DNA from: a virus
Lineage: Duplodnaviria > Caudoviricetes
Virus record (IMG/VR): IMGVR_UViG_3300046791_000074
Coordinates: 1 to 53,327 of that record
DNA: 53,327 nt
Direction: 5' to 3' (one strand)
The notes under the pieces: model-generated
Seen by the model: the letters and a program-made list of their open reading frames with translations, nothing else
Databases searched by the model: none
What the model was told of the DNA's origin: nothing
Shown: one piece after another, positions 1,706 through 52,287 of the stretch
How the letters are laid out: each line of letters opens with the position of its first letter
Position numbering within the stretch: the stretch's first letter is position 1
Made by a program: the position numbers and the translations under genes

Positions 1706-1759
1706 CCTCTGGGACCACTAGGTATCACAGGTCACAGCCAAAGCAATGACCACAGGGCG

Positions 1760-3847
1760 CTACGTGATGTGGCGGCCTTTGTTACCCGTAACAGTCCTGC
1801 CCGAGTTAGTTGTAACGTACTTCTTCTTATTGCCTACGGAGTAGAATGGTGGGACGAAGTGATAGACAATAGCCGTTATGGTGTCAGTGATGCCTACGAC
1901 CTCGCGGAAGTTCTTACCCTGTACCACTACCTGAGAGTCAGTAATGCCTACGACATCATCCGCTGACCTAGTCTTCAGAACTACCACGGTGACAGAGTCT
2001 GTAAGTCCAACAGCATCGTTGACAGGCTTGCTCACTAGAGCAGACATTGCGTCGCTAAGACTCAACAGGTCGCCGACAGGTGTACCGAAGGTAAGTCCTA
2101 CCTCGTCAGTGATACCTACAGCGTCGTACAAGATGTTGACTGATGCCCAGCTGGAGGTGATGGCATCCGAGATGCCGACGACATCATCTCTAGACGTACC
2201 GAATGCTAGCAGGACGCTATCTGTAAGGCCAACACCATCACTAACAGGCTTGCTGACTGTAACCGACATAGCATCGGTAATGCCAACCATATCATTGATC
2301 GTCGCACCGCTAGAGTCCGACTGGTCTACGACTAGCTGGTCTGTTAGTCCGACTGCATCGTTGATGGTGATGTTGTACGAAGCAACCTGAGTCACGATGT
2401 CAGTCAGGCCGACAGTATCACTCAACGCTAGGCCAGTGATCAGACTAGCGATGACAGAGTCAGTCAAGCCTACAGTATCGGCGACTACCTTACTCTGCGT
2501 AACCGATACCGTATCAGACAGACCAACAGTCTCCGCAATTACCTTGGACAGGATCAGTGCTGTCGTATCGGTAATGCCTACGGTGTCGTTCTGGGTTAGA
2601 CCCTTACCTGTCTCGACCGTGACGGAGTCAGTAATGCCTACGACGTCATCGACCTGCGACAAGAGTACGAACGAAGCTACTGCGGAATCGGTAATGCCTA
2701 CAGCATCACTGATAGCCTTCGACAAAGTTACTGCAACCGTATCCGACAAGCCTACAGTATCCTGAAGGCCTACAGTGATAGCGATGACAGTTACGTCTGT
2801 CAGGCCAACCGTATCACTGATCGGTACGGTCTTGGTTGCTGCGGCTGCATCAGACAGTCCTACAGTATCACTGATAGGTACGGACTTAGTTGCGGCTGCA
2901 GTATCTGTAATGCCGACGGCCTCGTTGGCTACGACCGAGATAGAGACAGCTATAGGGTCAGTAAGGCCAACGGTATCAGCTCGTCCTACACCAACCGTAA
3001 GAGCCATGGTCTCGGACAGGCCGACGGTGTCAGCTCGACCAGGACCAACAGTGATAGCCATGACATCAGACAGACCAACAGTATCCTGGACACCGTCGGT
3101 GATCTGGAGTGTGAAGTCTCCGGAGGTATCTGTAACGCCAATGGTATCGTTGACTGTTACAGTGAAGGCTGTCGAGAAGACCTTCGGACCAATAGCTGTA
3201 CTGGTACCGCTAGACGCTTTGACAGCATCTATCCAGTAGTCAGCAATGGTAGCAGTAGAGGACTTACCAATACCTAGATAGCGTCCTGTACCGCTAGTAG
3301 TGACCCCTGAGAACGAGATACTACTACCTGTCTCGGGTGTAGTACTTTGACCTAGGAAGGCTTGCAACGCCCCAGCAGTCGATGCAGTACCCAGACCTGA
3401 TGCCTGGTACTCTACTCTGTACAGGGTATTAGTTGACATCGTGAAGGTAGTAGTGGCTAGAGTTGTAGCACCGTCGGAGCTCTGCAGACGGAGACGGCCA
3501 TCTGTCAGCATCAATACCTGAATCATGTTCCCTGCGGCGGTACTGAAGATGCGCGTAGGGAAGTTTACAGTTGCACTAGGCAAGCCCGTAATGTAGATGT
3601 AGAACCTTACAGCAAAGGACGTAAAGCCATTCTCAATCTCGTACCGAATATAATTCGCTGCCGACGATGAGCTAGGAAACTTTATCGCCATCGTATCGCT
3701 AGCGGTATGATCGTCGTCGTAGGTGATCAGTCCTGCAGTACCAACTAGAGCGTCTACAATGGTGTCGCCAAAGTCGTCGCTGTTGGCAGTAGTCAGTGCT
3801 GAGGTATCAGTCTGACCTTCGTAGTTCGCTTCAATAGTAGCTGCCAT
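1760..3847 (-). CDS. Fibre-like protein: beta-rich N-domain plus about 23 D-x-V-G-[LI]-[TS]-D repeats
   Basis: 695 aa; the repeats recur every 18-22 aa from about residue 235 to near the C-terminus. Confidence 0.7.
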   Translation of the reverse strand: MAATIEANYEGQTDTSALTTANSDDFGDTIVDALVGTAGLITYDDDHTASDTMAIKFPSSSSAANYIRYEIENGFTSFAVRFYIYITGLPSATVNFPTRIFSTAAGNMIQVLMLTDGRLRLQSSDGATTLATTTFTMSTNTLYRVEYQASGLGTASTAGALQAFLGQSTTPETGSSISFSGVTTSGTGRYLGIGKSSTATIADYWIDAVKASSGTSTAIGPKVFSTAFTVTVNDTIGVTDTSGDFTLQITDGVQDTVGLSDVMAITVGPGRADTVGLSETMALTVGVGRADTVGLTDPIAVSISVVANEAVGITDTAAATKSVPISDTVGLSDAAAATKTVPISDTVGLTDVTVIAITVGLQDTVGLSDTVAVTLSKAISDAVGITDSAVASFVLLSQVDDVVGITDSVTVETGKGLTQNDTVGITDTTALILSKVIAETVGLSDTVSVTQSKVVADTVGLTDSVIASLITGLALSDTVGLTDIVTQVASYNITINDAVGLTDQLVVDQSDSSGATINDMVGITDAMSVTVSKPVSDGVGLTDSVLLAFGTSRDDVVGISDAITSSWASVNILYDAVGITDEVGLTFGTPVGDLLSLSDAMSALVSKPVNDAVGLTDSVTVVVLKTRSADDVVGITDSQVVVQGKNFREVVGITDTITAIVYHFVPPFYSVGNKKKYVTTNSGRTVTGNKGRHIT

Positions 3848-3858
3848 TACTAGTCCAC

Positions 3859-4215
3859 CTAGTCAGTCAGGATGGCAATGGTAAGATTACCCTCCGCCGC
3901 TCCACCGTTTGAGGGGAAGAGAAAGAACCTATACCGAATGTTGATGAAGCCCTCTTGTACGGGCAACTGCTCTGAGTCAGGCGACGGGGGCATCCAAATG
4001 CCCCACTCCTTGCGAGGGTCCTCTGTCTCAAGGTCCCAAGTACCGTACACGTTACTCTCGACGACAGAGAGAAACTTCGCACCGAGTGGAACAGGGATTC
4101 GAAAGTCTGCATAGAGCCCATCCTCGGGATAGATCTTCCCTCCAATGGTAATGTGATCCGCGACGAGATTGGCATCGACAGGCAACTCGTACCGCATAAA
4201 CTCGATCTTACTCAT
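3859..4215 (-). CDS. Hypothetical protein
   Basis: 118 aa, translationally coupled to the upstream gene. Confidence 0.6.
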   Translation of the reverse strand: MSKIEFMRYELPVDANLVADHITIGGKIYPEDGLYADFRIPVPLGAKFLSVVESNVYGTWDLETEDPRKEWGIWMPPSPDSEQLPVQEGFINIRYRFFLFPSNGGAAEGNLTIAILTD

Positions 4216-5366
4216 TACACACCGCTTCCTGTGAAGTTCAGATATGTAGACGACACGTTTGTCCCGCCTATGTAGCTACCTACACCAGGAGACCCACCAG
4301 ACCAGGTGCCCCCGACATAGACTTTGATGTCACCCATCTGAGCTAGCTGCGGATTGCCCTGCTCAGTACTAGGGTAGTACACTTTGATCTTGTTCGAAGC
4401 GCTTCGACCAATGGGGTCATAGATGTTGAGGTATGTTCGGCCTTGGTCGTTACCGTAAAAGATGTCCTGACCTGCCGCAATGACGGAGCCCCAGGTGTAG
4501 TTGACGACGTTCACAGTGCACATCGCCGAACTACTACCTCGGAACACCTCTCGACCCATACGTTCTAGGTTCAGGTTAGTACGATTGCCCCCAGTTGAGC
4601 CGCAACCAATCAGCGTATGCACTCCAGCACCTTGCCAAAGGGCGAATGCGGCTGAGTAAGGCTGGTTGTTGCCCCAACAGTTCTTGTACGTGTAGCCCCT
4701 AATGCCGTCGGTCGCTGAAAGTCCGTTAGCTCCGAAGGCTGAAGCGCCTCGAGGAGTACCGTTTAGCGTCCCGTCGATCGTTACGTTCTCGTAGTAGTGG
4801 TTGTCACCACCGTACGAAGCGATGCCGAAGGTCTCACCAGGCTGAAAGTACCAGTCCCCAGGAGCCGCTCCGTTGAGTTTGACGTTTTTGATCTGTGCAT
4901 TCTCACATTGGTGCATGCGAATGCCATTGTACAAGTGTCCTTGCTCAGATCCGTTCAGTCCAAAGCAGCTCAACGTCAGGTTCGAAGCCTTGTTGAAGTG
5001 CATCAGGTATAGTTGGTTCGTTCCACCCTGCGCTTGGGTAGGTACCGAAGCTGCTTTGGTGGACGTACTCGCTACCATAGAGAATGTCGTGAGGTCTGGG
5101 CCTACTCCGACGATACCCTGGGAGCCATTGAAGTAACCATTGACAACACCGTCTGTGGTCTGTGCGAAGTCGGAGAAGGTATTGTTGCCTGCAGGGAATG
5201 AGATGACGTTACTAGACGTCGCACTTGCGGCCTTAGCCGTTAGGGTCGAACCAGACAAGTCCTGGTTGCGCTGATACCCTGCTCCAGAAGCTTGCACACT
5301 GGAACAGGCCGCACCGCCTCCCTGGGAAGCGATGCGGCCTACCGTGACGCTGATTAACCTACCCAC
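4215..5366 (-). CDS. Putative right-handed beta-helix (pectin lyase-like) spike/depolymerase
   Basis: 383 aa, Gly/Ser/Asn-rich, with parallel beta-helix-like segments (GIRMHQCENAQIKNVKL, HYYENVTIDG). Confidence 0.55.
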   Translation of the reverse strand: MGRLISVTVGRIASQGGGAACSSVQASGAGYQRNQDLSGSTLTAKAASATSSNVISFPAGNNTFSDFAQTTDGVVNGYFNGSQGIVGVGPDLTTFSMVASTSTKAASVPTQAQGGTNQLYLMHFNKASNLTLSCFGLNGSEQGHLYNGIRMHQCENAQIKNVKLNGAAPGDWYFQPGETFGIASYGGDNHYYENVTIDGTLNGTPRGASAFGANGLSATDGIRGYTYKNCWGNNQPYSAAFALWQGAGVHTLIGCGSTGGNRTNLNLERMGREVFRGSSSAMCTVNVVNYTWGSVIAAGQDIFYGNDQGRTYLNIYDPIGRSASNKIKVYYPSTEQGNPQLAQMGDIKVYVGGTWSGGSPGVGSYIGGTNVSSTYLNFTGSGV

Positions 5367-5595: not shown

Positions 5596-5596
5596 G

Positions 5597-6187
5597 TTAC
5601 GCTCCCAGGAACTTGTGGTTCCAGGTGACCGCCAGAGTGTCCAGCGCACCCTTGTTGACGGTCGAGAGGACAGCACGACTGTAGGTGTTCGCAGCCGTGC
5701 TGGTGGCGTTGGCGGCAGCGTCGTTGACGATGACCACCTCGTTGATGGTGGAAGAGGTTGCGACGCCGGCACCCCAGGTGGACTTGTAGGTCGCGTTCCA
5801 CCCGGTGTCACCACCAGCCGAAGCACTCGACGGGAAGGTCGAGTCGAATGCGATGTTGCTCGCGGTCAGGTACGCAACCAGCAGCGACCCTGTGGAGCTC
5901 TTCGCCGCCGCAGTACCCGTGGTCCCGAGCTTCATGCCCGAGGCGATGGTCGGAGCCGAGGGGGTCGAGGGCGAAACACCGACGATACCCTTCTGGCAGT
6001 AGTACTGGTCGCCAGCGGTCGTGACCAGGTTGGCGAACGGGACAAGCTGCTTGGTCTTCCCGTCCTCGTCGAAGACGTGAGCAATGCCGAAGCCCTTGAG
6101 CCCCATGCCCGACGGGAGCGAGCGGGTCATGAAGTCGGCCTCAGCGAGAGCCTCCTCCACCTCCGAACGCTTGGTGATGAGATGCAT
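5597..6187 (-). CDS. Tail-collar/fibre-attachment-like structural protein
   Basis: NLVTTAG...MKLGT...INEVVI...RAVLSTVNKG..DTLAVTW pattern, typical of fibre N-terminal domains; start MHLITK after a GGAG RBS. Confidence 0.6.
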   Translation of the reverse strand: MHLITKRSEVEEALAEADFMTRSLPSGMGLKGFGIAHVFDEDGKTKQLVPFANLVTTAGDQYYCQKGIVGVSPSTPSAPTIASGMKLGTTGTAAAKSSTGSLLVAYLTASNIAFDSTFPSSASAGGDTGWNATYKSTWGAGVATSSTINEVVIVNDAAANATSTAANTYSRAVLSTVNKGALDTLAVTWNHKFLGA

Positions 6188-6195
6188 TGGAACTC

Positions 6196-6522
6196 CTATC
6201 GCTGGACTTGGACTTCGCCCGAGAGGACGACAGTGCGGAGAGGCTTCATGAATACCAAGTTGAAGGGCTTGGTATCCCAACTGACAGTCGTGTCAGCAGC
6301 TGTGAGGGTGATAGTCACCCGATTGCCTACGATGGTCCCTGGCCACGAAGTGACAACGCCATTGACGTCCACCTCAAGCGATGAAGAGACCACAGAGGAG
6401 AGGTCGCTCGGTTGTGTGGCAGCTGAGTCTTCCCAGAACAGAATCTCCGGAGCGCTGACCGAGTTGTACGTAATGTAGATGATGGTAGAGATCAGCTTGT
6501 CGCCGATCTCGACCACCCTCAC
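6196..6522 (-). CDS. Hypothetical beta-rich structural protein
   Basis: 108 aa within a coupled operon; ends VLSGEVQVQR. Confidence 0.55.
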   Translation of the reverse strand: MRVVEIGDKLISTIIYITYNSVSAPEILFWEDSAATQPSDLSSVVSSSLEVDVNGVVTSWPGTIVGNRVTITLTAADTTVSWDTKPFNLVFMKPLRTVVLSGEVQVQR

Positions 6523-7049: not shown

Positions 7050-8540
7050 TCACTTATTGCCAGAACGGTCGGTTCCAGCGTTGCCGGCGGGGAGTTGTGC
7101 CTTCGCTTTAGGCTGCTGCCGCGGAGGCCCTGCCTCTGGTGCTTTACCCGCTCCAGGCTTGCCAGCCTCAGATTCCCCAGGTGCTTGGGGTGTCTCCGTC
7201 TTACGGATGGTTGCTTCATCCAAAGGAGGCAGGTCCATTTCATCACGGATGCTCGTCTCGAGCGGACCATCCGGCTGGATGATCCCCGCACCGACGAAGT
7301 TCCGGATGGCGAACGACAATGTGCGCCAGTCGGCAGATTCACCAATACGACGTGCCCTGATGTGTGGGTACTTCTTCACACCAGGGAAGTTGTAGTCGAC
7401 GAGTTCCTTGATCAGGTAGTCGTTGAAGGTCTGGCAGACGATGTCAGCAATGAACCTTGTCGCCTTGAGGAACATGTCCGAAGCAACATCCTGACTACCA
7501 CCCTCGGTAAGGAAGGATGCCAGGATCGACTTCTCGATCTGCTTGTCATGGTGCTCGATGCTCTTCAGGCAGTCAACGGGCTGCCCTTCGAGCTTCAACA
7601 TGATCAGTTCCCAGTTCGGCGGGAGCACAACGTGTGCACGCTCGTTCGTCCTGAGGTTACGTCCCATGTTCTCCGCCAGCATCTTGTCGTCGCTGCTGAA
7701 GCCTGGCGGAAGAGTAATCATGGGGATGCCGATGCCGTGGCGCTCTTTCTGGATGGCATCGATCTTGTACAGCGTCTCCTTGTAGTACCAGTGCTTGTAG
7801 GGCGTCCGGAGAAGAGACATGCCCTCGATGTTACCTGCCTCCTTGTCAAAGGAGAACACCAGCATCTTCTTGATGTCAATGCGGATCGGGTTGCCCAGGG
7901 GATTCGCAGAAGGCCACATCTCTACGGCCTTCGGTCCACCATTGGCGTCGTAGAACCATTCCTTCACGTCCATGGGGTGGCGCGGTCCGAGCTTCTTCAG
8001 GACCGTCCGCATCTTCCCCTCGACCATCCGGTTCTCCCAGACCTTCTCGTACATGTAGTAGCCGAACTCACACATGAGCAAGGCTTCCTGCAGTACCTGA
8101 GACCAGGAGATGGACATGTGCTCCGTGAAGCACTGCCAGACGAAGTCCGCAATCTTCTTGTCCTTGAGGCGAATCGTCTTCTCAGGACCGAATGTCGCAG
8201 GCTCCATAAACCAGCGCGCAGCAAGTACCGGAGTCTTAACGAGGCGAAGAGTTCCCCGTACAGTTCCATCCGACCGACGCATCTGGTCGTACTTCTGCAG
8301 ACCCTTGATGCCCTGAAGGTCTCGGTTGTACTCTGCACGAATGAAGGAGGTGAATGGTGAGGGCGAGCTGGTACCGAGTTCGCGAAGATCGACATCAGTG
8401 TCAACCGTCTCCCTGAATACCTTCGGCGTCACGACCATGAACGGCTCGGCGCCTTCGTCGTTGACGATGGAGACCAAGTCGAATCGGTCCATGACTTCGG
8501 CCAGCGTTGCGATCTCAGAGACCACAGAGGGCTCGCTCAT
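7050..8540 (-). CDS. Portal protein (Mu gp29/DUF935-like)
   Basis: 496 aa downstream of TerL; G.SLLR..YKHW.YK...D....ERHG.GIP motif. Confidence 0.9.
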   Translation of the reverse strand: MSEPSVVSEIATLAEVMDRFDLVSIVNDEGAEPFMVVTPKVFRETVDTDVDLRELGTSSPSPFTSFIRAEYNRDLQGIKGLQKYDQMRRSDGTVRGTLRLVKTPVLAARWFMEPATFGPEKTIRLKDKKIADFVWQCFTEHMSISWSQVLQEALLMCEFGYYMYEKVWENRMVEGKMRTVLKKLGPRHPMDVKEWFYDANGGPKAVEMWPSANPLGNPIRIDIKKMLVFSFDKEAGNIEGMSLLRTPYKHWYYKETLYKIDAIQKERHGIGIPMITLPPGFSSDDKMLAENMGRNLRTNERAHVVLPPNWELIMLKLEGQPVDCLKSIEHHDKQIEKSILASFLTEGGSQDVASDMFLKATRFIADIVCQTFNDYLIKELVDYNFPGVKKYPHIRARRIGESADWRTLSFAIRNFVGAGIIQPDGPLETSIRDEMDLPPLDEATIRKTETPQAPGESEAGKPGAGKAPEAGPPRQQPKAKAQLPAGNAGTDRSGNK

Positions 8541-10233: not shown

Positions 10234-10285
10234 CTCGCCTCCTTATATAAACACGGTCTCCCGAGAAGCAAAGACCACAGGGTGG

Positions 10286-11485: not shown

Positions 11486-11737
11486 ACACTCAGTCTAGAC
11501 GAGAGGTAGGGATCATGCGACACGAACGGATTGATCAGGCCATAGAGAAGTACGGGAAGGGGTTACTCACACTTCCCGAGTTCGTCGAGGAGGTTACCCT
11601 CGCCTTCGCAGTGTTCGACTGTGACTGCCTAGGGTGTTCGGTATAGTCGGGACCTAGGTGGACCTGGAGGTTGGTACCTCAGAAGGGGTGCCTTCCTCTA
11701 GGGCCACCAGGGTCCTAGAATACCACAGGGAGTCCTC

Positions 11738-14675: not shown

Positions 14676-14913
14676 GGCTCTGCGCTACTTGTTTCTGCAA
14701 CGGAAACCGGTAGTGCTGTACTTCAGAGACCACAGGGAGGTTAAGGTGCGCGAGCTTGTTAGGGCCACGTGGCCTTATCTCGTGTATGCACTACCGACAG
14801 TATGCCTGTTCTGTTCCATAGGCGTACAGAGAGGAGCAGTCTAGTCTACCATGAACTGGCCTAGCTCGAATCCGATCAGAGGGAACCCGCTATCGACCTA
14901 CGGAGGTCCAAGC

Positions 14914-15634: not shown

Positions 15635-16004
15635 GCCAGAAGGACGTGTTCATCACCATACAGGTGAAGCTGTCTGTTCCTTCAGACGGTGAGTACGACC
15701 AGGAGTCGTACTTCATTCCCATCAAGGAGGTGCTCGAGAATGCGGACATCTGGATGGACGTTGAGTCGGGTCACGTCTTCGACGAGGTTGACTCGATGGA
15801 GGTGACTCATGTCACTCCTCGAAGCCGCAGCGGCAGTTAGCTTCACCATCCTCGCCCTGTGGTCTCTGCTGACCTTGATACGCCGGTCGCCAGGGAGCAC
15901 GATCATGCGAGGCACGTTGGGGAATGTTCGACCTGAACAGACGATCCACGAACGGGATCACGTACGTCGATACCCGTACGACGACGGGCCCATCTGATCT
16001 AAGA

Positions 16005-20075: not shown

Positions 20076-20109
20076 GCACAGAGGTTGTGTAGAGACCACA
20101 GGAGGATCG

Positions 20110-30199: not shown

Positions 30200-30311
30200 T
30201 AGCACAGCACCACAGGGAGGCTGGGTGACTTGAGGCACCACCTAGATGGGCCGGAGCTTACATCGTGACGCCACGTAAGCTCGTGGGCCCCTAACCGTAA
30301 GGGCGGGATGA

Positions 30312-34704: not shown

Positions 34705-35338
34705 ATCGGAATTCCTGGGTAATGCTAAGCCCTTCATCGAGAATGGTCTGCTCTTTACCAGGAAGCGCAAGACGGACTTCGAGCCCGTCGCCTTCCGTAC
34801 ACACGAGGACGTCGCACGAGAGTTCCTGTCCTTGTTGGACGGCTGGGCAGAGGTCGACGAAGACCACAGGAAGGAGACGCCCGGCCGTATGCTGAAGATG
34901 TTCCAGCAGATGACAACCAGGGAGGAGTTCAACTTCACGACCTTCCCGGCGAAGAATCAGGACATGATCACCCTGGGACCGATTCCGTTCTACACCATGT
35001 GCGCACATCACACAGCTCCGTTCTTCGGCAATGCCTACATCGGTTACGTTCCTGGTGCCTCGATCGCAGGCCTGTCCAAGTTCGTTCGTGCAGTCCAGTA
35101 CTGTGCGAAGGGGTTCCACGTGCAGGAGGATCTGACGCATGACATCTCCAAGTACCTCGAAGATCGGTTGGCTCCGAAAGGTGTGGCTGTGGTGCTCCGG
35201 GCCGAACACCTCTGCATGGCAATGCGAGGAGTGCAACAGCCGGGAGTCGTCACAACCACGTCAGCCATGACTGGCGTGTTCGGAGATCACAGTCGAACTG
35301 CCAAGGCGGAGTTCATGAACATCATCGGAGGTAACTGA
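34694..35338 (+). CDS. folE: GTP cyclohydrolase I
   Basis: ETPGR, CAHH..PFFG, GLSK, VQE and HLCMAMRGV. Confidence 0.95.
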   Translation: MPSESEFLGNAKPFIENGLLFTRKRKTDFEPVAFRTHEDVAREFLSLLDGWAEVDEDHRKETPGRMLKMFQQMTTREEFNFTTFPAKNQDMITLGPIPFYTMCAHHTAPFFGNAYIGYVPGASIAGLSKFVRAVQYCAKGFHVQEDLTHDISKYLEDRLAPKGVAVVLRAEHLCMAMRGVQQPGVVTTTSAMTGVFGDHSRTAKAEFMNIIGGN

Positions 35339-35954: not shown

Positions 35955-36739
35955 CGAAGATGATCTTCATTCCGCCATTCGCAATGTTGGACTCGACGCT
36001 GAACTCGTATCGGCATCTGATGCTCCCGCATCTGCTGACACACCAGGTGTACTCCAACCACTTCAAGAGGGTGAAGGGGCTGGGTCAGTACATCATCCTG
36101 GACAACGGTGCAGCCGAGGGTGTCAAGGTTACGGGTCGGCAGCTCGTCGACACCTGCTACGACTACAAGGTCGACGAGCTTGTCCTACCCGACGTAATGG
36201 GTAGCAGCGATGCTACCTACGACGTAGCTACCGACTTCCTGACGGACTACCGCAACAGACTCCCGGTATCGACGCGACTGGGCTACGTGCTCCAGGGCCG
36301 TACCGTGACGGAAGCGGTAGACACATACCACAGGGTGCGCGGCAATACTCGGTTGCTGGCGAAGATCAACGTCTGGTATCTGCCGAGGTTGTTGGTGACT
36401 CCGGAGAATCCAGACGCACGGATCGATGTCGCGGAGTACATCCTGGACCTAGAAGGTAAGCTACCCAAGCCGATCCACTTCCTTGGTGCAGCTCCGACCT
36501 TCATCAGTGAGATCGCCACCGTGCGAGATCGTCATCTGCGAATCCGGAGCATGGACACATCTGCTCCGTTCGTGTACGCATTCGCTGGAAGGTTCATCGC
36601 GGAGGAAGGTGTGCAGCGTCGAGACCAGGAGAAGTACTTCACTTCCCTGGTCGACAACACGACGCGAGCTTTGGCCATGCGCAACTGCTCGGTGATGGAA
36701 GGCTGGGCTGGTGCGCAAACACCCACTAGCGAAGTGTGA
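35951..36739 (+). CDS. TGT-fold (DpdA-like) base transglycosylase
   Basis: ILDNG, LPDV, VLQG, IHFLG and SMDTS motifs in TGT order, inside the que cluster. Confidence 0.75.
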   Translation: MTKMIFIPPFAMLDSTLNSYRHLMLPHLLTHQVYSNHFKRVKGLGQYIILDNGAAEGVKVTGRQLVDTCYDYKVDELVLPDVMGSSDATYDVATDFLTDYRNRLPVSTRLGYVLQGRTVTEAVDTYHRVRGNTRLLAKINVWYLPRLLVTPENPDARIDVAEYILDLEGKLPKPIHFLGAAPTFISEIATVRDRHLRIRSMDTSAPFVYAFAGRFIAEEGVQRRDQEKYFTSLVDNTTRALAMRNCSVMEGWAGAQTPTSEV

Positions 36740-39089
36740 GGAGTGCCCTCTTGCGGCCGTCGGTAAGTTCGTTCCGTCGGAGATTCCTGCAGCAGGAGCT
36801 AAGCTCGCATTCGTCGGGGAAGCACCGGGGCTCCAGGAAGCTCGGACGGGGAAGCCATTCATGGGTCCCTCTGGCGAGCTTCTTAATCGTGTTATGCGTC
36901 ATCATCGTATCAAACGTAGGGAGGTGCTTCTAACCAATGCGTGCCTTTGTCGCCCGCCTGATAACGCGACACCTGCAGCGAGTGCTGTCAAGGCGTGTTC
37001 AGAACGTCTCGTGGGCGAGCTGGAGCTCGCGGGGGTCAGCACAGTGGTGGCACTCGGTAACACTGCGGCTCAAGCACTTACCGGTCGAACTGGTGTTACG
37101 AAGCTCCGTGTCGGGTCCGGAATCCCATCGAATTTCGATCCGAATCTACGTGTCGTCTCAACGCTCCATCCCGCGTACTGTTTGCGAAACGCTGATGGAT
37201 TCCCATCCCTTGTCGTCGATGTCGGAAAGGCAGTAAACCCAGGTGTTGTCTTCACCCCTCCGGTGTACCGAGTTGTCGAGTCTAGCGTTGACGCTATCAG
37301 GGTCATCCGAGGACTTCTACTCGGATCAGGCCCAGTCGTTGTCGACATTGAAAGCGACGTTGAGAAGGATGTCGGCTTCGGACACCCTAACCAGCATACT
37401 CTGCTCTGTGTGGGGATCACTGCAAGAGGACGAGTCCGCTACGTACTCGCTGACAGTGCACTCACACCAAGAGTCTGGGCAGCACTCCGTATCCTATTCC
37501 TTCGAAGGGGTGCATCAGCTCAGAACGGAAAGTTCGACCTCGCAGGACTCTACCGCTTCATCGGGGCCGTACGTCTAAAGTTCGATACGCTGCTAGCGTC
37601 CTACGCGTGTGACGAGCGTCCAGGCATTCACGGCCTAAAAGTTCAGGCCCAGGAGTATCTGGGCGCTCCGCCCTACGATGATGAGGTAAAGAAGTATGTC
37701 GGTCCGGGTGAAGGTTACGGCAAAATCCCGAGACATATTCTATACCAGTACAACGCGTACGACATTCATTGCACGGATCTCTTGCAGGAGATGTACGAGC
37801 GGAGGTTTAGTAACGACCCGGACGCTAAGAGACTACACGATTTTCTCTTGGCAGCATCCGAGCAACTCATGTTCGTCGAGCTCAATGGTATGGCAGTGGA
37901 CCTGGAATACCTGAAGGTACTCGAGAAGCGGTTCTTTGCCAGCCTCGCAGTCCTGGAGCTAGAGCTTGACGACCAACTGAAGAGCAACCCCAAAGTCCCT
38001 GTGGACTTTGTCAACCCAAGGTCGCCGCAGCAGGTCAAGCGAGTACTACATTCGTTGGGTGCTAAGGTTACTACTACGAACAAGGAGATGCTCTGGAAGC
38101 TACAGGATCATTGTAAGGACCTAGCTGTCGCCAAAGGCTTCGAGGGTCCGGAGGTCTTCCCGATATACAACTTCGTGACGACTCTTCTGGATCACCGGAA
38201 GGAAGCGAAGCTCTATGGAACGTACGTCAAAGGTATTCGGAAGCGACTGTACCGTGGACGGGTGTACCCGACATTCCTTATCCATGGAACTACTTCCGGA
38301 CGGCTCTCTAGTCGGAACCCTAACATGCAGAACATCGTTCGAGGTAGCGACATTCGAAATATGTTCGTCCCAGCTAAAGCCGGAAACGTCTTCGTACAAT
38401 CAGACTACAGTCAAGCTGAACTGCGTGTGCTCACCTGGCTCGCTTCCTGTATCTATTTCCGCGACATCTTCAACGCTGGTGATATTGATCTATTCGACGA
38501 GCTCACACCGGTGCTCTACCCGAAACTTCCACCTAAGCACCTTGTACATCCGGGAGAGTGGAAGGAGATCCGTATTCGTGTCAAGGCTTTCGTTTACGGG
38601 TTGGGTTACGGTCGCGGAGAAGGATCCATCGCGGAAGAGTTCAAGATCCCGTACAGCGAGGCACTTACTCTCAAGCGTAACTTCTTCTCGGTCATCCCGG
38701 AGATCGTCAGCTGGCAGCGTGAGATTCAGGAAGCAGTCTTCTCGGGAGAAGACCTCAAGACACCGTTTGGACGGACCCGCCGCTTCGGACTGATCACGGA
38801 TCAGAACCGACACGAGATCGAGAAGGAGTGCCTTGCCTTCAAACCACAATCCATCTCCTCAGACATCTGTCTGGGAGCAATGGTCACACTACGCCGCGAG
38901 CTCAAGGGTATGGCCTGGATACGGAACATCGTACACGACTCCATCCTGGCTGAGTGCGCTCGAGAAGACGCTGAACGAGTCGGATCGCTTATGGATCGAC
39001 GCATGGTGGAATCCGCCCGCAACACTGTCGGAGACTACGTTATCTTTGCTACAGACAGCAAGGTCGGAAACAACTGGGGAGAGGTCTGA
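36711..39089 (+). CDS. Family A DNA polymerase with an N-terminal family-4 uracil-DNA glycosylase domain
   Basis: UDG motifs CEEC, VGEAPG, PFMGPSG, CRPPDN, LG and HPAY; exonuclease motifs DIE, NGKFD and YNAYD; polymerase motifs TTSGRLSS, DYSQAELR, KAFVYGLGYG and VHDS. Confidence 0.93.
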   Translation: MRKHPLAKCEECPLAAVGKFVPSEIPAAGAKLAFVGEAPGLQEARTGKPFMGPSGELLNRVMRHHRIKRREVLLTNACLCRPPDNATPAASAVKACSERLVGELELAGVSTVVALGNTAAQALTGRTGVTKLRVGSGIPSNFDPNLRVVSTLHPAYCLRNADGFPSLVVDVGKAVNPGVVFTPPVYRVVESSVDAIRVIRGLLLGSGPVVVDIESDVEKDVGFGHPNQHTLLCVGITARGRVRYVLADSALTPRVWAALRILFLRRGASAQNGKFDLAGLYRFIGAVRLKFDTLLASYACDERPGIHGLKVQAQEYLGAPPYDDEVKKYVGPGEGYGKIPRHILYQYNAYDIHCTDLLQEMYERRFSNDPDAKRLHDFLLAASEQLMFVELNGMAVDLEYLKVLEKRFFASLAVLELELDDQLKSNPKVPVDFVNPRSPQQVKRVLHSLGAKVTTTNKEMLWKLQDHCKDLAVAKGFEGPEVFPIYNFVTTLLDHRKEAKLYGTYVKGIRKRLYRGRVYPTFLIHGTTSGRLSSRNPNMQNIVRGSDIRNMFVPAKAGNVFVQSDYSQAELRVLTWLASCIYFRDIFNAGDIDLFDELTPVLYPKLPPKHLVHPGEWKEIRIRVKAFVYGLGYGRGEGSIAEEFKIPYSEALTLKRNFFSVIPEIVSWQREIQEAVFSGEDLKTPFGRTRRFGLITDQNRHEIEKECLAFKPQSISSDICLGAMVTLRRELKGMAWIRNIVHDSILAECAREDAERVGSLMDRRMVESARNTVGDYVIFATDSKVGNNWGEV

Positions 39090-40095: not shown

Positions 40096-40122
40096 CCGCT
40101 TGACGATGAATGGAGACCACAG

Positions 40123-40623
40123 ATGGTGTTAGACCCGAACGTTAGAGTCATCGCCCTTGATCCGGGTGGCACTACGGGGTGGGCTACCTGGCAAGCTCTT
40201 ATCATCCCCGGCATCACACTGGGGTCGCTGAAGAGTTCGCAGAGCTATCACTGTGGACATATTGGCGGACCCGAGCACGGACAGGAGCTCGTCAACTTCC
40301 TCGGCCATCAGAGGGTGATGCAGACCGTGGTCGTGTGTGAACGCTTCGACGATCGTCATGCCGGACATCACGTCGATCCCGTGGCCCTGAAGTACATCGG
40401 AGCAGTCGAAGTCTGGTGCAAGGAGAACGACGTTCCTCTACACATGCAGATGCCTGGGACAGCCAAGGCGTTCGTGAAGGATGCGAACCTCCGACGCCTA
40501 GGTGTCTACCAGGGCAAGCAGTGGAAGCACGCCATGGATGCCTACCGGCACCTCTTCTGGTACCTCATCAACGGGGAGCCGAAGCGTAAGGACCTGCTAG
40601 CGAAGGGCTGGCCTAATGCATAA
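40123..40623 (+). CDS. RuvC-like Holliday junction resolvase
   Basis: IALDPGGTTGWA, VVCERF and HAMDA. Confidence 0.8.
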   Translation: MVLDPNVRVIALDPGGTTGWATWQALIIPGITLGSLKSSQSYHCGHIGGPEHGQELVNFLGHQRVMQTVVVCERFDDRHAGHHVDPVALKYIGAVEVWCKENDVPLHMQMPGTAKAFVKDANLRRLGVYQGKQWKHAMDAYRHLFWYLINGEPKRKDLLAKGWPNA

Positions 40624-42531: not shown

Positions 42532-44285
42532 TAGAGCAGGTTCGCATTCTGGCTAATGGTAGCCCAGACGGTAAAGTTTGTCGTGGTAGCGTTCGTTAGC
42601 TTGTGTGCAGGTGTAGTAGCGTTAGAGGCAGTACCCTGCTGATAGGCATACACGACACCTGGACGAGTAGTCGACGTTGCACCATAAGTAATGGTCCAAG
42701 TCTGTGCAGCACCCAGACCTGCTAGGCTGTTACCAGCAATGATGCAGTCAGCAGGAGCGTTAGAGTTGGAAGCATTGTCAGAGAACTGCCCAACGATATA
42801 CACACGCGAAGTATCATCAACGTAGAGGACTGCGGCTTCTGTACCTGTATTGGTAACGCGCAGTCGTGCAGTGGTTTGTCCACAATCAACCTGTCCACCA
42901 TCTTGCACGTTACCAGTACCGTTGTAGCAAGACAGAGTACCACCATTAGCATTTAGCAAGAGTCGACCACCAACGAGACCACCCCCACCTGTGGTCTTGT
43001 TCGTCTCTAGCAGGATGCCTGAAGCGTTAGCCATGAACAACCTGTGGATGCCTGTAACACTGGGTGTCGTGGCGTATGTGAACGTACCCGTGTTCAGGCC
43101 GAGCATAGAGACGCTGCTACCGTCCTGCGGCGAGTTGATGAACGCGTTGTTCGTACCTGCAGCATTGTACATGGTGATGGTAGTCCGGTCACCACCGTCG
43201 ACCATATCTAGGTAAGGACTGCCACCACCTGGGAAGCCTGTCTGGAACTTACCTGTGAAGGTAGCTGCACCTGTAGCTGAGGCGATGTCAACAGTCTGGC
43301 CGCCGCCAGAGTTGAATGCCTGGATGCCATTGATGTTCATCTCAACGCGCGCACCACTTGCGGCTGTCATGATCCGAGCACCCACGGTCATGTTAGCCGT
43401 TAACGTACCGACCGTAAGCTTACCGACAGACAGATCTGAGATCTTAGCATTGTTAACTGCAAGGTTCTGAATGTTCGCCGTAGCGATAGCGTTCGCACCG
43501 ACGTCTGCGTTGACTAGGAGTTCTGGGATCCCTGACCCAGCCGTCGAGGCTGGAGACCTGTTTCCAACAGTATCAACAGCAACCAGGCGAGCGAAATAAG
43601 TGGAACCGTAAGTAAGATCGGTGGCAACCCAAGTACCACCGCCACGAAGGATAGTCCCGACAAGAGTAGCAACAGTGGGAGTAAAGGTTGCTCCGGTCGT
43701 GCTAAGATGTACTTCACAAAACCTAAAGTCAGTCGGAGGCTGCCCAGCAGATACATCTTGACCATTCCAATCGATTGCCAGCTGACCCAAGTACGGCGTG
43801 ACTGTAGGTGTGCTAGGCTGGAAGGGTGCAGTAGAGTCTGTAGTGGTAGTGTTGTTGATGGTGCTATACGCACCAATGGTACCCTTCCTCGTCCTGGCAC
43901 GCACTCGGAAGGTAACACTCTGACCTTGTGTGAAGGGTCCAACGTCTACGAAGGTATCTGTCGTGAAGAGGTCTGCAGTCCAGTGAGTACCGTCAATGGT
44001 CCATGAGGTGAGGTAACCATCGAGCGGGTCCTTGTTGTACTCAGACGGGTCATCCGGAATAGCAGACCAGCTATAGCGAAGCATGACACGATAGAAATCG
44101 TCCGCACCAATGCTCGTCTGGGTCGTCAACGCCAGGCCGGTCACCGCAAGCGACGCAATGACCACAGGGTCATCGCCGCCCGTTGAGCCCTGCACTCCGC
44201 GTTCCAGTCGAGCCAGCCTGCGCTCGAGCATCCGCATGTAGTCGATGAGGTCAGTCTCACCTGAGGAGTTCGTATAGCCAGGCAT
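42510..44285 (-). CDS. Minor tail/fibre protein with two FN3 domains
   Basis: TFRVRART and YFARLVAVD..GN.S FN3 strands; AKISDLSVGKLTVGTL fibre segment. Confidence 0.85.
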   Translation of the reverse strand: MPGYTNSSGETDLIDYMRMLERRLARLERGVQGSTGGDDPVVIASLAVTGLALTTQTSIGADDFYRVMLRYSWSAIPDDPSEYNKDPLDGYLTSWTIDGTHWTADLFTTDTFVDVGPFTQGQSVTFRVRARTRKGTIGAYSTINNTTTTDSTAPFQPSTPTVTPYLGQLAIDWNGQDVSAGQPPTDFRFCEVHLSTTGATFTPTVATLVGTILRGGGTWVATDLTYGSTYFARLVAVDTVGNRSPASTAGSGIPELLVNADVGANAIATANIQNLAVNNAKISDLSVGKLTVGTLTANMTVGARIMTAASGARVEMNINGIQAFNSGGGQTVDIASATGAATFTGKFQTGFPGGGSPYLDMVDGGDRTTITMYNAAGTNNAFINSPQDGSSVSMLGLNTGTFTYATTPSVTGIHRLFMANASGILLETNKTTGGGGLVGGRLLLNANGGTLSCYNGTGNVQDGGQVDCGQTTARLRVTNTGTEAAVLYVDDTSRVYIVGQFSDNASNSNAPADCIIAGNSLAGLGAAQTWTITYGATSTTRPGVVYAYQQGTASNATTPAHKLTNATTTNFTVWATISQNANLLYWAFRTT

Positions 44286-46107: not shown

Positions 46108-48365
46108 TACCCCACCTTCGATGCCAGCAGGAAGCCGAGGTCGGCTGCGTGCTTCTTGGGATCAATCTCTTGCGTAGTGATGTAGAAGTTCTGGGTGACT
46201 TCGCCTCCACCACCATTGCCTTCACCCTGACCGGGAACCCAACTCGGGATCCTCTTGGTCATGCCGCCTAGCTTGGTCTTGATGGCTCCGGCACCATCTT
46301 CGATGCCCTCACCATAGCCCTGCATAGTCAACTGACCCGCTCCGTACAGGAGCTTCTTGTCGACGTTCGCGGGGCCCTTCCAGGACGGGATGAGGTTCGT
46401 GATCTGGGAGAACTTGTTCTTCAGGGAGCCAATCATGCTCGACACACCATTGATTAGGCCCTGGACAATCGATCGTCCAATGCCATTCAGCATAGACCCG
46501 GGAGAGGGAATCGCACCCCTGATCTTGCCAGGCAACGTTTTGAACCAGTTGACCACAGAGGTGAACTTGCTCACGACTGTGTTCTTCACTGCAGTGCCGA
46601 CGGACGAGAAGAAGCTAGTCAGACGGTTCTTGATAGATACGACTGCGTTGTAAGTCCTGCCCGGCAGTAGCTGGAAGAAGTTGATGATCGCATTCCACAC
46701 CGTCATGGTTGCGCTCTTGACAGCCAGCCAAAGGGTCTTGAAGAAGTTGCTGATCGGGGTCCAGATGGCCTTCAGCTTGTTGACGGCATTCGTTCCGACG
46801 TTGGACAGCCACTCGAGAATCGCTGTCCAGACTTGCTTCGAAACGATCTTGACGCCCTCCCAGACATCCTTCCAGAACTGGATGAAGCCCTTCCAGGCAT
46901 TGACGATTCCATCTTTCCACCGCTGGATGTCCTTCAGGAACAGATCCCACTGCTCGCGGAACCAGCTCATGATCGCATCCCAGTTATCGTACAGCAACCA
47001 CGCTACTGCGATGATTGCGACAATGACTGCGATGACAACACCAATGACAACTGCTACGGTCGAGAGTGCTACCCCAGCTAGAGCTGCGGCACCCATGATC
47101 ATGAGGATGCCGCCTGCGACTATGACCAAGATGCCGACGAGGACCGTAAGGACAGATGCTACCGCGGCAGCGATGACGATAAACTTCTGCGTACCTGGGC
47201 TAAGCCTATCCCAAGCGTCGAGTACCTTCATGATGATCTCGACAAGCTTCATCTTGATCGGCAGCAACCGATCGCCGACTTCGACCCGCATCGCCTGGTA
47301 CTTGTTAGTCATCAACTGCATCTGTGCCTGTGGCGTATCGAACATCGTCTTGTAGGCACCCTCCATCGTACCAGCGGAGTCGTGCATCTCCTTGGTACGA
47401 AGGTTGAGTTCCTTGAAGCCAGGGATCGCGAGGTCGAAGAACCGTCGAGCCTGGATGGTACCACCAGAACCGAGGAACAACTTCTTCAACGCATCTGCAC
47501 GTTCAGGTGCAGTCATGTTCTTGAGCTTGCCATTCAGCTCTTCGACGACCTGCGCCATGGGCTTGAACTCGCCCTTGGCGTTACGGACGGAGAGGCCAAT
47601 GTCCTTCATGTGCTCTTCGGTAGCCGGGTTCGACATCGCGTCGAAGGCTCGTCCAGCAGACGTTGCGGCCTGTGCTGTCGAGAGTCCGTTACGGGTCATG
47701 AACGCCATCATACCGGCAAGGTCTTCGATGCTGTTACCAGCACGTACGGTCGACGGAATGGCTCGACCGATGGCAGACGAGAACTGCGTATAGGTACCGA
47801 CGCCCTTCTGAACCAACCGGAACATAACGTCGTTGACCCTGTTGACCTCAGTTGCAGGCAGCTTCCACGCGTTCAGGATCGCGATGGTACCCTTGCCTGC
47901 GGTCTGAAGATCTGTCTGTCCCGCAACAGCTGCCTTGGAGAACTCGGTCAGAAGGTTCTGCGCCTGAGGAACTGTTACGTCCATCGATGAGAAGATGTCG
48001 TACAGACCACCTTGGATCTCTTCGAATGGAACTGGAATGGTCTTCGCCAGGTCCAGTCCGATCTTGCTCAGTTCCTTCAGTGACACCTGTACCTTGTCGG
48101 TCTGCGTTTTGGTATACGCAACCTGGGTGTTGTAGTCACCTGCAGCATTCGTACTGTCTACCAACCACTTGACGCCTAGCGCACCGGCGTAAGCGATACC
48201 TGCACCCACCGTGACTAAGCTCTTACCCTGGTCGATGTGTGCCTGTGCCGCCTTCTTGGAAGCTGAAGACATGTCATTGATGTTGCCAGCAGCTCCACGG
48301 AGGACGCGCGTTGCCTCATCGCGAGCACGCAGGATCAGCATTAGCTCACGTGTTCCGAGACCCAT
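46107..48365 (-). CDS. Tape measure protein
   Basis: 752 aa, Ala/Gly-rich helical, with a TM segment and aromatic-periodic repeats. Confidence 0.92.
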   Translation of the reverse strand: MGLGTRELMLILRARDEATRVLRGAAGNINDMSSASKKAAQAHIDQGKSLVTVGAGIAYAGALGVKWLVDSTNAAGDYNTQVAYTKTQTDKVQVSLKELSKIGLDLAKTIPVPFEEIQGGLYDIFSSMDVTVPQAQNLLTEFSKAAVAGQTDLQTAGKGTIAILNAWKLPATEVNRVNDVMFRLVQKGVGTYTQFSSAIGRAIPSTVRAGNSIEDLAGMMAFMTRNGLSTAQAATSAGRAFDAMSNPATEEHMKDIGLSVRNAKGEFKPMAQVVEELNGKLKNMTAPERADALKKLFLGSGGTIQARRFFDLAIPGFKELNLRTKEMHDSAGTMEGAYKTMFDTPQAQMQLMTNKYQAMRVEVGDRLLPIKMKLVEIIMKVLDAWDRLSPGTQKFIVIAAAVASVLTVLVGILVIVAGGILMIMGAAALAGVALSTVAVVIGVVIAVIVAIIAVAWLLYDNWDAIMSWFREQWDLFLKDIQRWKDGIVNAWKGFIQFWKDVWEGVKIVSKQVWTAILEWLSNVGTNAVNKLKAIWTPISNFFKTLWLAVKSATMTVWNAIINFFQLLPGRTYNAVVSIKNRLTSFFSSVGTAVKNTVVSKFTSVVNWFKTLPGKIRGAIPSPGSMLNGIGRSIVQGLINGVSSMIGSLKNKFSQITNLIPSWKGPANVDKKLLYGAGQLTMQGYGEGIEDGAGAIKTKLGGMTKRIPSWVPGQGEGNGGGGEVTQNFYITTQEIDPKKHAADLGFLLASKVG

Positions 48366-48377
48366 CGCGCGCCCTCC

Positions 48378-48970
48378 TTACTTCCTCTTCGACTCGCGTT
48401 CGGCCTTCTCGCCTAGGGCCATTGAGTAGGCCTTCAGCATTAGTACGTGGTACGGATCCTGATCAAGCAATCCACCTTCGTGCGGCAGTACTCGGTACTC
48501 CTTGCATATTGCTGCGATCTCGATCGCGAGTGCCGTCTCGGCGTCCGGTGCCCGGGAGAGCACCACAGAGGCGGCTACTCGCTGGATGAGTTTCCCGGAT
48601 CCTCATCGCCCGAGTCCTCGTCCTCGAAGTTGTTGAGCTCGTTCATGTACTTCTCGATCTCCTGGCCCACCTTCGGATCCAGCATCTCGACGTCGTTCGG
48701 GTCGGAGAGATTGAGGAGCTTGCCCTCAACCTTCTCCAGGTTGTGCTCTACGACGCACTGCTGGAATTCGTAGAGGTTCACCTTCTTGTTCGCCATGGCG
48801 ATTTCGCCCTCGACGTTCTTCGACTTTCCCTGAGTCTGGAACGTGAGTTTCATCATGGCGCGACGAGTCAGAATTTGTCCGTACGACATAGCACGGAGAG
48901 TAATGAAGCCCCCTGCCAGGGTCTTCAACTGATACGTCGTCGTTCCGGTATCTCGCACTGCGACAGGCAT
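48378..48970 (-). CDS. Tail assembly chaperones G (48575-48970) and GT, joined by a -1 frameshift
   Basis: Slippery G-GGA-AAC at 48596-48590; the -1 frame reads KLIQRVAASVVLSRAPDAE and continues into ORF 48378-48566. Confidence 0.85.
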
Positions 48971-49009
48971 TTCGTCTCCCTTAAGACTAGGCCCTGTGGT
49001 CTTTGATTC

Positions 49010-49131: not shown

Positions 49132-49133
49132 TA

Positions 49134-50057: not shown

Positions 50058-50329
50058 TAGTTGCTACCCCCTTCCTGCTTCGCAACCTGCACGGTTACAC
50101 CTTCGACGTCCTTGTAGGCCTCGAGGAGGGTGCGACCGAGCTCCCACTCCGTGACTCCCGTATCTGCAGAGACCACAGGGTGCTGATGAGCCACTCGGTA
50201 CGCTTCCGCTTCCGCTGCCGAGATCTTGTAGGTGTGACCGTTCTTGAAAATCCCGGTCAGACCCGTGATGTCGATCTCCCCGTCCTTGGGGAGGTTCGGG
50301 AAGTCGAACTTGACTGTGTACACGTACAC
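50057..50329 (-). CDS. Hypothetical protein
   Basis: 90 aa with an AGGAGG RBS. Confidence 0.6.
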   Translation of the reverse strand: MYVYTVKFDFPNLPKDGEIDITGLTGIFKNGHTYKISAAEAEAYRVAHQHPVVSADTGVTEWELGRTLLEAYKDVEGVTVQVAKQEGGSN

Positions 50330-50332
50330 CTC

Positions 50333-51294: not shown

Positions 51295-51302
51295 GTCTCC
51301 TC

Positions 51303-51758: not shown

Positions 51759-51760
51759 GG

Positions 51761-52070
51761 TTAGGCCTTACCTGCCGGAGGTGCGACGGCCTTCTTGGCG
51801 GCCGGCGGGTTCGGGGAGGTCTGCTGCTCGGACTGGGCCTGCGCGTCGCCGAGTGCCTTCTGCAGCTGATCGATCCTCCGGAGGAGCTCTTCGCGCTCCT
51901 CGTCCTTGTCAGCCTGCGTCACGGCCGGCTCGCCGATGGCACCGTTCTCACGGAAGCCGTCCAGCACGTCGGCGGGAACCTTGTCGACCTTCGAACCCTC
52001 GGGGACGGAGACGCGCTGCCCGTCCTCGTCGATGTATTCGAGACCCGTGAGGGCCACTTCGTTGCGTGCC
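51761..52070 (-). CDS. Hypothetical head-associated protein
   Basis: Follows the capsid genes; start approximate. Confidence 0.6.
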
Positions 52071-52071
52071 A

Positions 52072-52287
52072 TTAGTATGGCCTCCAAACGTTTGTCTGCG
52101 TCCCTGTGGTGCGGCGGGCGACAGCAACGCCCCCGTTGATCGCTGAGCGCGTCCGGTCGCTATTCACAATGGCCAACACGAGATTGCTCTGGTCGGTGAT
52201 CGAAGTCACCTTCGCAGAGACCCACTTGGCTCCGGGTGTGAGATAGGAAACGTTCGAGCCCAGACGAACAACGGAGGCATTGGCCAT
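52072..52287 (-). CDS. Small beta-rich protein, paralog of 9970-10233
   Basis: 71 aa coupled to the capsid gene stop codon. Confidence 0.65.
   Translation of the reverse strand: MANASVVRLGSNVSYLTPGAKWVSAKVTSITDQSNLVLAIVNSDRTRSAINGGVAVARRTTGTQTNVWRPY

Follow-up and report, generated by a model that had tools for sequence, protein, structure and literature searches.

A dispersed CCACAGG-core word in a soil phage genome as a candidate priming signal of the phage's own primase-helicase

The virus record IMGVR_UViG_3300046791_000074 of IMG/VR (Duplodnaviria; Caudoviricetes) carries a nine-letter word, ACCACAGRG, dispersed through genes and spacers along the genome, and the question raised by this locus is what reads it. 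The stretch analyzed (the window) is the complete virus record of 53,327 bases, with a terminal repeat of 127 bases; its source is a soil metagenome, the only public run containing it, and no close relative was recovered among deposited phages by megablast with 20 kb of the window as query. A literature search on the word itself matched only macrophage primer lists. An earlier note on this DNA, made from its letters, had proposed a site system for a phage protein, with five options for its role. The analysis supports such a system, and among the five options primase initiation sites are favored: with moderate confidence, we read the word as the signal at which the phage's own primase-helicase, a 745-aa protein encoded at 30312-32549 on the plus strand, recognizes its template and starts priming. 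This reading draws on the enrichment of the word, its independence from coding and transcription, its even spacing on each strand, its co-occurrence with the primase gene, the predicted fold of the primase, and related words in distant phages, the last four of these being what singled out primase initiation.

All 18 exact copies listed in the earlier note were correct in coordinate and strand, and two more were found, at 28917 on the minus strand and 36327 on the plus strand. In total, ACCACAGRG occurs 20 times (15 on the plus and 5 on the minus strand), 13 times as ACCACAGGG and 7 times as ACCACAGAG; nine copies (6 plus, 3 minus) have the extended form AGACCACAGRG. One hundred dinucleotide-preserving shuffles gave a mean of 1.39 copies (standard deviation 1.06, maximum 4), and an order-3 Markov background predicted 0.36 copies of ACCACAGGG and 0.38 of ACCACAGAG. 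This background replaced a maximal-order Markov ranking of k-mers, under which the motif was hidden because its sub-words are enriched too. The excess also survived the codon-preserving shuffle that the earlier note had suggested as a check: when synonymous codons were shuffled within genes 300 times, 10.86 ± 0.83 copies were left (maximum 14), nearly all of them copies outside called genes, which the procedure leaves unchanged, and the 10 copies wholly within called genes dropped to about 0.9. A weight matrix built from the 20 exact copies, used to find variant sites, returned 30 sites with a score of at least 11, compared with 4.5 in shuffles.

The word is written without regard to coding or transcription. 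Genic copies in the window occupy all three codon offsets and both senses. Relatives of the window (G000) were obtained as whole genomes via the head protein (G001-G015), and in 11 genomes of this set the shared core, CCACAGG, has 318 sites, 211 of them within called genes and 107 outside, the latter share being about twice what the non-coding fraction of the genomes would give; by orientation to the local gene, 158 sites are sense and 160 antisense. Thus, the statement that copies lie both within and between genes and do not follow transcription was borne out; the word is not a transcription-linked element, and it is under selection on the DNA itself, regardless of coding.

These counts bear directly on a regulatory role, in which the copies would be stoperator-like operators, promoters, or sequences linked to ribosome-binding sites. 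The surplus outside genes and the GGAGG-like letters that follow several copies would suit such sites, but two thirds of the copies are inside genes, their orientation is balanced, and the window annotation holds no repressor, so that this role is scarcely probable. In cluster A mycobacteriophages, tens of asymmetric stoperators of ∼13 bp are spread across both genome arms, oriented with transcription and read by an immunity repressor. The window resembles them in having tens of copies of an asymmetric word across both arms, but its word shows no preferred orientation with respect to genes, and the annotation turned up no repressor; the stoperator option, under which sites should follow transcription, is thus at odds with the sense and antisense counts. 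The annotation agrees with the earlier observation that neither an integrase nor a repressor is present among the window genes. Nor is it a general feature that a copy precedes the primase gene: 9 of 52 loci have one, against a background of 0.33, and primase autoregulation through an upstream copy was dropped on that count.

A preference for the plus strand, taken earlier as a sign of genome polarity, holds for the strict 9-mer (15 plus, 5 minus; two-sided binomial ∼0.04) but not for ACCACAG (18 plus, 16 minus) or the matrix sites (18 plus, 12 minus), and relatives use both strands, with 11 plus and 9 minus copies in G002, 12 and 17 in G007, and 10 and 13 in G014. The claimed polarity is therefore fragile and was overstated. 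Its absence from most relatives also counts against translocation signals of the KOPS or packaging kind, which require strong polarity.

Within each strand, by comparison with random placement, the copies are evenly spaced. In most of the 23 strand sets, drawn from 12 genomes, the coefficient of variation (CV) of the gaps was lower than random (Stouffer Z -6.87), as in the plus rows of G002 (11 sites, CV 0.20) and G008 (19 sites, CV 0.24) and in the two rows of G007 (CV 0.39 and 0.38); rows not more even than random were the plus row of G009, both rows of G013, and the minus rows of G003 and the window. In the window, the ACCACAG plus row has 18 sites with CV 0.41 (p = 0.0002) and the minus row 16 sites with CV 0.67 (p = 0.08), and the matrix sites on a circular map gave CV 0.41 (p = 0.0001) on the plus strand and 0.56 (p = 0.03) on the minus strand. 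The word recurs here about every 3 kb on the plus strand and every 3-4.5 kb on the minus strand. Strong near-alternation of strands, of the kind that two interleaved even rows would give, was seen in G007, G008, and G014, with 18 of 22 switches (p = 0.001) in the last of these.

The CCACAGG-core word was the most enriched 8- or 9-mer in 10 of the first 11 genomes, at 42-57% GC, and its flanks differ by lineage: it reads (AG)ACCACAGGG in G000-G002, ACCCACAGGGC in G003-G005, CCCACAGG in G006 (34 copies), TCCACAGGG in G007 and G008 (29 copies), and CCCCACAGG in G009. G013, with 47 copies of CCCACAGG, and G014, with 23 of CCACAGGG, follow the pattern of the other word-bearing relatives. No excess was detected in G010, G011, and G012, which have 4, 0, and 1 copies of CCACAGGG, respectively. 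Individual sites turn over: at ∼70-75% nucleotide identity, 4 of 10 aligned sites are kept between the window and G001 and 4 of 9 between the window and G002, and the remainder have been replaced with the number maintained, so that some places are conserved and the count is held constant.

The gain and loss of genes among these genomes point to the primase. When the 72 window genes were compared by tblastn with 16 genomes, absence being scored as no match at E 1e-4 or better, the primase gene was the only one present in all word-bearing genomes with the replication region (found in G001-G009, G013, and G014) and absent from the word-less ones (G010, G011, and G012); G011, G012, and G013 are rated 100% complete. 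The helicase, exonuclease, Sak4, and polymerase genes are present in word-less genomes too. Between Sak4 and the polymerase, where all other relatives have the RepB'-like primase-helicase, G012 has a 340-aa Prim-Pol (PF09250) and a 417-aa Dda-like SF1 helicase (L139:1443-3715), and G011 carries the same pair (199-2489). This pair is found in no word-bearing genome and constitutes a non-orthologous replacement of the replication starter. In trees of TerL and portal proteins (FastTree, midpoint root), G010-G012 are sister to G009 and G013 (support 98 and 88), with similar GC, and are nested among word-bearing genomes. One exchange of the primase module, in a single lineage and together with loss of the word, would account for this pattern; being a single event, it is suggestive and carries no statistical weight. 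As a separate observation, the primase open reading frame of G009 encodes 1,090 aa, compared with ∼745 elsewhere (51539-54811; L115:11539-14811, minus strand), and its match to the window primase covers half of the latter, which may reflect an insertion, for instance an intein.

Two other window enzymes were set against the same comparison. The DpdA3-like transglycosylase (35951-36739) might exchange the G in the middle of TGT on the strand complementary to the word, much like the action of tRNA-guanine transglycosylases on U-G-U, and the window does encode FolE, QueD, QueE, QueC, and the DpdA3 homolog, with TGT at the center of the complement of the word. However, strong enrichment of the word is seen in G006, G009, and G013, the last of them a complete genome, and all three are without deazaguanine or DpdA3 genes; in the DpdA3 phages studied, all G is replaced (PMC10516641, as far as its accessible text goes). 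A modification target, moreover, need not be enriched or evenly spaced. The DNA-modification option thus has almost no probability left, and the DpdA-target reading was dropped on the evidence of the three genomes without the pathway genes.

Site-specific single-strand nicks, as in T5-like and some Pseudomonas phages, would be made by another phage DNA enzyme, and the nick sites of phages do look like short, asymmetric, dispersed words; the window has an HNH gene at 39694-39993 that might serve. Known nick systems mark one strand, however, and here both strands carry the word. The HNH gene was not found in word-bearing G009 or in word-bearing, fully complete G013, no window gene other than the primase tracks the word, and the nick consensus of LUZ24/tf-type Pseudomonas phages has no match in the window. 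Nicking is therefore very improbable as the function of the word.

If the primase is the reader, its architecture should be one that recognizes short words, and the predicted fold is consistent with this. The 745-aa protein matches Pfam RepB_primase (PF16793, E 1.3e-8) and belongs to a large family, with at least 1,296 of 8,000 scored proteins reaching E 1e-10 or better, whose typical members combine PF16793 with PF13148 (DUF3987). Its models (predicted local distance difference test score, pLDDT, 84.1 for the full length and 86.7 for the N-terminal part) are predicted to comprise a RepB'-like AEP domain (residues 1-195), a helix bundle (198-305), an MCM-like P-loop helicase (328-665; DUF3987), and a winged helix (670-733). 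The modeled AEP domain aligns with RepB' (3h25_A, Z 17.9) and the S-2L PrimPol (6zp9, Z 18.2), and the N-terminal model over residues 7-305 has full-length RepB' as its closest structural relative (3h20_A, Z 18.8). The helix bundle matches that of pRN1 (6gt7, Z 8.0, root-mean-square deviation 3.6 over 98 aligned residues), 3m1m (Z 7.2), and NrS-1 (6a9w, Z 6.5), compared with at most 5.4 for unrelated helical proteins, and the helicase domain matches MCM-like structures at Z of about 20. By its modeled fold, the protein would thus belong with the helix-bundle AEP primases RepB', pRN1 ORF904, and NrS-1.

The words read by these primases have counterparts here, the complement of every copy reading C(C/T)CTGTGGT, which contains GTG and GTGG. 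In the accessible parts of the published accounts, RepB' depends on its helix bundle and starts its primer with dATP at T32, which lies in a GTG triplet of ssiA (PMC8567376), pRN1 ORF904 requires 5'-GTG-3', and the NrS-1 prim-pol reads 5'-GTG(G/A)-3' and 5'-TTTGGTTA-3' through its helix bundle (PMC8718748); a DUF3987 protein is described as a 5'-3' helicase that binds its AEP partner (PMC11724360). The window system resembles those of pRN1 and NrS-1 in pairing an AEP domain and helix bundle with a short single-strand word that has no hairpin and whose complement holds GTGG, but differs in that its word has 8-9 letters and lineage-specific flanks, is ∼15-fold over-represented genome-wide, and is evenly spaced on each strand. 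A long, selected, evenly spaced genome-wide word is not described for the priming sites of pRN1 and NrS-1 in the accessible part of the account (PMC8718748). RSF1010 provides the closest structural relative, RepB', with a primer start at the T within GTG; its ssiA and ssiB, however, are 40-nt hairpin elements, one per strand in one origin and of leading-strand mode only (PMC8567376, accessible part), whereas the window has ∼30 short words without hairpins across the genome and a primase fused to a helicase. The primase-helicase of T7, gene 4, uses 5'-(G/T)2GTC-3' sites (PMC12839067, accessible part). It shares with the window protein the fusion of a primase to a replicative helicase and the short template words on the lagging strand, but is of the DnaG/TOPRIM type and has a 5-letter word. 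To our knowledge, no selected, evenly spaced grid of T7 primase sites has been described.

On the analogy of these enzymes, a mechanism can be outlined in which every step, including the primase as reader, the strand read, the start nucleotide, and the role of the primers in Okazaki fragments, is inferred only. The helix bundle would recognize the complement of the word, 5'-CCCTGTGG(T)-3', in the single-stranded DNA that becomes accessible at the replication fork, the presumed single-stranded template word being 5'-CCCTGTGGT-3'. The AEP domain would begin the primer at or beside the T of the GTG triplet and then copy the C-run, so that the primer would open with the letters of the word as written (ACAGGG...). 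Either strand could serve as a lagging-strand template, hence a word row of its own on each strand, and selection would keep the rows even and write the word through genes where no spacer is available.

The same protein might read the word in another way, the winged helix at residues 670-733 binding it as a duplex and the sites serving as dispersed, origin-like positions for helicase loading and not as primer starts. This predicted winged helix aligns with MCM winged-helix domains, some homologs of the primase are labeled as transcriptional regulators or carry PF12802, and co-occurrence with the primase gene is explained equally well. A binder of double-stranded DNA, on the other hand, needs no separate even row on each strand, and the word contains the GTG triplet that three studied helix-bundle primases use on single strands. 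We know of no precedent for ∼30 origins in 53 kb, and duplex reading by the winged helix is considered unlikely.

Beyond the clade of the window, the word was sought at 51 primase loci of at least 12 kb with primases 48-80% identical to that of the window, four of which are parts of G001-G004. CCACAGG was among the top three 7-mers at 12 of the 51 loci and among the top ten at 21. On a quick IQ-TREE tree of the primases, the base that precedes CCACAG changes with the clade: A2 and B have T, C and D have A, and E, F, and H have C. A weak CTCCACAC is seen in clade G3, with nothing clear in G1 and G2. Homologs in cultured phages, at 24-30% identity, came from 15 Arthrobacter, 7 Streptomyces, 4 Clavibacter, 3 Curtobacterium, and 1 Stenotrophomonas records. 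In the first 50 kb of each of two of these genomes, Stenotrophomonas Jojan60 had 89 copies of CTGTGC (27.9 expected), with a pyrimidine-rich 5' flank, and Arthrobacter Amigo had 92 copies of GTGTGC (28.9 expected). The per-strand rows of these words are even at ∼1-1.2 kb (p 0.0002 and 0.026 in Jojan60, <0.0002 and 0.003 in Amigo). A TGTG core common to phages of two host phyla, with hosts in the Actinomycetota and Gammaproteobacteria, argues for a reader carried by the phage.

A reader supplied by the host would be, for example, an enzyme responding to a Chi-like signal that tames a RecBCD/AddAB-type nuclease acting on linear phage DNA from either end. An evenly spread word on both strands that is blind to transcription would suit this role, and a difference in hosts could explain why the word is missing from some primase-bearing relatives. 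Against it, the core persists in phages of 42-57% GC, the word-less clade is sister to word-bearing genomes of similar GC, and related TGTG words occur in phages with the same primase family whose hosts are Actinomycetota and Gammaproteobacteria. No Chi-like density was detected in 201 Bacteroidota genomes, a phylum outside which the host may lie: the highest count of CCACAGGG was 175 copies in 2.4 Mb, or ∼0.07 per kb, compared with 0.34-0.56 per kb in the phages (18-29 copies per ∼52 kb). Little weight attaches to this density comparison, since the window has sigma-70-like promoters, which speak against a host in the Bacteroidota. A search of bacterial genomes returned one phage-like contig, in the bin of a Chitinophagaceae metagenome-assembled genome (MAG), and one distant prophage-like match in Gemmatimonadota, too weak to name a host. 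Altogether, reading by a host enzyme is quite improbable. The promoters in question are three intergenic TATAATT boxes on the plus strand, at 11072, 18051, and 24054, each heading a plus-strand gene block, the last with TTGACT 17 nt upstream; they have the appearance of canonical sigma-70-type early promoters.

Several observations weigh against priming by the helix bundle and set its strength. CCACAGG has fewer than 5 copies at 12 of the 51 primase-bearing loci, and a 51.7-kb contig with a 40% identical primase (G016:C526), binned with a Chitinophagaceae MAG, has no CCACAGG excess; the Prim-Pol of G012, used as query, was not found in this contig. The primase is thus necessary for the word in the sample, yet not sufficient. 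Within the clade, the link to the primase comes from one clade and one swap, and the dialects of the word could equally follow overall phage or host phylogeny. Reading of double-stranded DNA by the C-terminal winged helix is an alternative for the same protein. No PDB sequence was matched by a profile of the N-terminal part of the primase; D92, D94, H141, and D147, invariant in 21 homologs, are candidates for the catalytic residues, which in RepB' are D77/D78/D134. No ssiA-like hairpin was found, the folding energy of 110-nt windows at the sites being that of random windows in G000, G002, and G008 and somewhat lower in G014 only, and the RepB' precedent is partial for lack of such a hairpin. 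Finally, the minus-strand row of the window is weakly even (p 0.03-0.08), and the threshold for matrix sites was picked after the scores had been seen.

A broader claim, for which the case seems evenly balanced, is that a large group of phages has genomes shaped by their own primase: an 8-9-letter word co-evolving with the helix bundle and placed by selection every few kilobases on each strand, coding sequence included, would make the initiation of lagging strands hard-wired and not opportunistic. From soil siphophages to the Arthrobacter and Stenotrophomonas phages that have the RepB'-like primase-helicase, genomes would be shaped likewise, with TGTG-core words differing in length. Primase recognition words as such are already known (PMC8718748, PMC8567376, in their accessible parts); a long one that is selected genome-wide and evenly spaced per strand was not found in the literature searched, as far as its accessible texts extend. 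If priming is indeed the function, primer start sites in these phages could be read straight from sequence, protein domain and DNA word would form a co-evolving pair that makes primase specificity predictable, and replication, not coding or regulation, would constrain a visible part of the synonymous and intergenic sequence. The word would also be a genomic marker of the type of primase a phage uses, the T, A, or C before CCACAG would offer natural specificity variants for studying how helix bundles read DNA, and sequence-specific primases might serve as tools. For annotators, such dispersed words would call for caution, as they would not be operators, methylation sites, or repeats of mobile elements. 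Arthrobacter phage Amigo and its relatives and Stenotrophomonas virus Jojan60 are cultured systems that make this reading testable.

The 20 exact copies are distributed over both arms of the genome. Among those in spacers are a copy of ACCACAGGG between two minus-strand genes (1749..1757, plus), the copy with the top matrix score, beside the small terminase gene (10274..10282, plus), intergenic copies at 11722..11730 and 14729..14737 (both plus) and 48992..49000 (minus, kept in G002), and a copy ∼100 nt upstream of the primase gene (30209..30217, plus, kept in G001 and G002). Copies in sense orientation lie in the WDGH-domain gene (23311..23319, plus, kept in G001), in gene 27236-28537 (27608..27616, plus), at the end of the primase gene (32421..32429, plus), and in the DpdA3-like gene (36327..36335, plus). 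Antisense copies are found in the first codons of the portal gene (8521..8529, plus), in the exonuclease gene (24838..24846, minus, kept in G001 and G002), in the Sak4 gene (28917..28925, minus), in a tail gene (44161..44169, plus), in the tape measure gene (46552..46560, plus), and in gene 50057-50323 (50172..50180, plus, kept in G001 and G002). One copy is at a gene end (48562..48570, plus), and the rest are at 6389..6397 (ACCACAGAG, plus), 15855..15863 (minus), and 52102..52110 (minus).

Variant copies recognized by the weight matrix are ACCACAGGA at 20095..20103, which fills a gap in the plus-strand row, and again at 34863..34871 (plus), and ACCACAGAT at 40116..40124 (plus, score 11.4). 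On the minus strand they are ACCACAGAC at 5151..5159, TCCACAGGG at 5888..5896, 30664..30672, and 37997..38005, ACCACAGGC at 22655..22663, ACCACAGTG at 33124..33132, and ACCACAGGT at 42987..42995. Of the eight near-matches listed in the earlier note, six reached a score of 11; the minus-strand one at 21616 fell just below at 10.9, and the one at 8551 has the CCACAGG core alone.

The genome has two oppositely transcribed arms, with structural genes on the minus strand (40872-53291 and 113-10651) and early and replication genes on the plus strand (11120-40801). The annotated minus-strand genes include the major head protein (52287-53291), tape measure (46107-48365), portal (7050-8540), and large terminase (8540-9970), and, by a weak match, the small terminase (10286-10651); on the plus strand are an SNF2 helicase (from 20487), a PD-(D/E)XK exonuclease (from 24084), Sak4 (from 28791), the primase-helicase, QueC, QueD, QueE, and FolE (32530-35338), the DpdA3-like gene, and a family A polymerase (36711-39089). 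No tRNA genes were found in the window. The succession of helicase, exonuclease, Sak4, primase, and polymerase genes is similar to that in the replication modules of Amigo and Jojan60. Both of these phages have annotated WhiB-like genes, and the window has a weak WhiB-like match at 39305-39697 (plus; PHROG 12112, E 1.3e-6).

The 7-deazaguanine DNA-modification set of the window is complete (32530-36739, plus), comprising QueC, QueD, QueE, FolE, and the DpdA3-like protein of 262 aa. Among the only phage matches of the latter is CGPG_00065 of Cellulophaga phage phiST (23% identity, E 4e-6), and its sole PDB sequence match is an archaeosine tRNA-guanine transglycosylase (E 0.79). In the accessible text of its source, CGPG_00065 is named DpdA3, a subfamily linked to the replacement of all G (Hutinet et al., 2023; PMC10516641). 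From these gene matches, the DNA of the window phage is probably heavily modified.

Other enriched words were encountered alongside CCACAGG. The strand-biased 7- and 8-mers ACAGTAT and AGGCATTA of the window stem from the gene of a 695-aa protein with internal periodic repeats (1760-3847, minus; PHROG 12240), in which they recur at multiples of 60 nt. In G005, overlapping poly-C octamers, among them CCCCCCCC, counted 23 times, are all on one strand and may be an assembly or end artifact. A second enriched word, AAA(T/C)CGGACA(T/A)A, occurs in G004 and G009-G013 and is strongly one-stranded, for example as AATCGGACA in G012 (10 plus, 1 minus) and AAATCGGAC in G009 (0 plus, 12 minus); it looks transcription-linked and independent of the type of primase.

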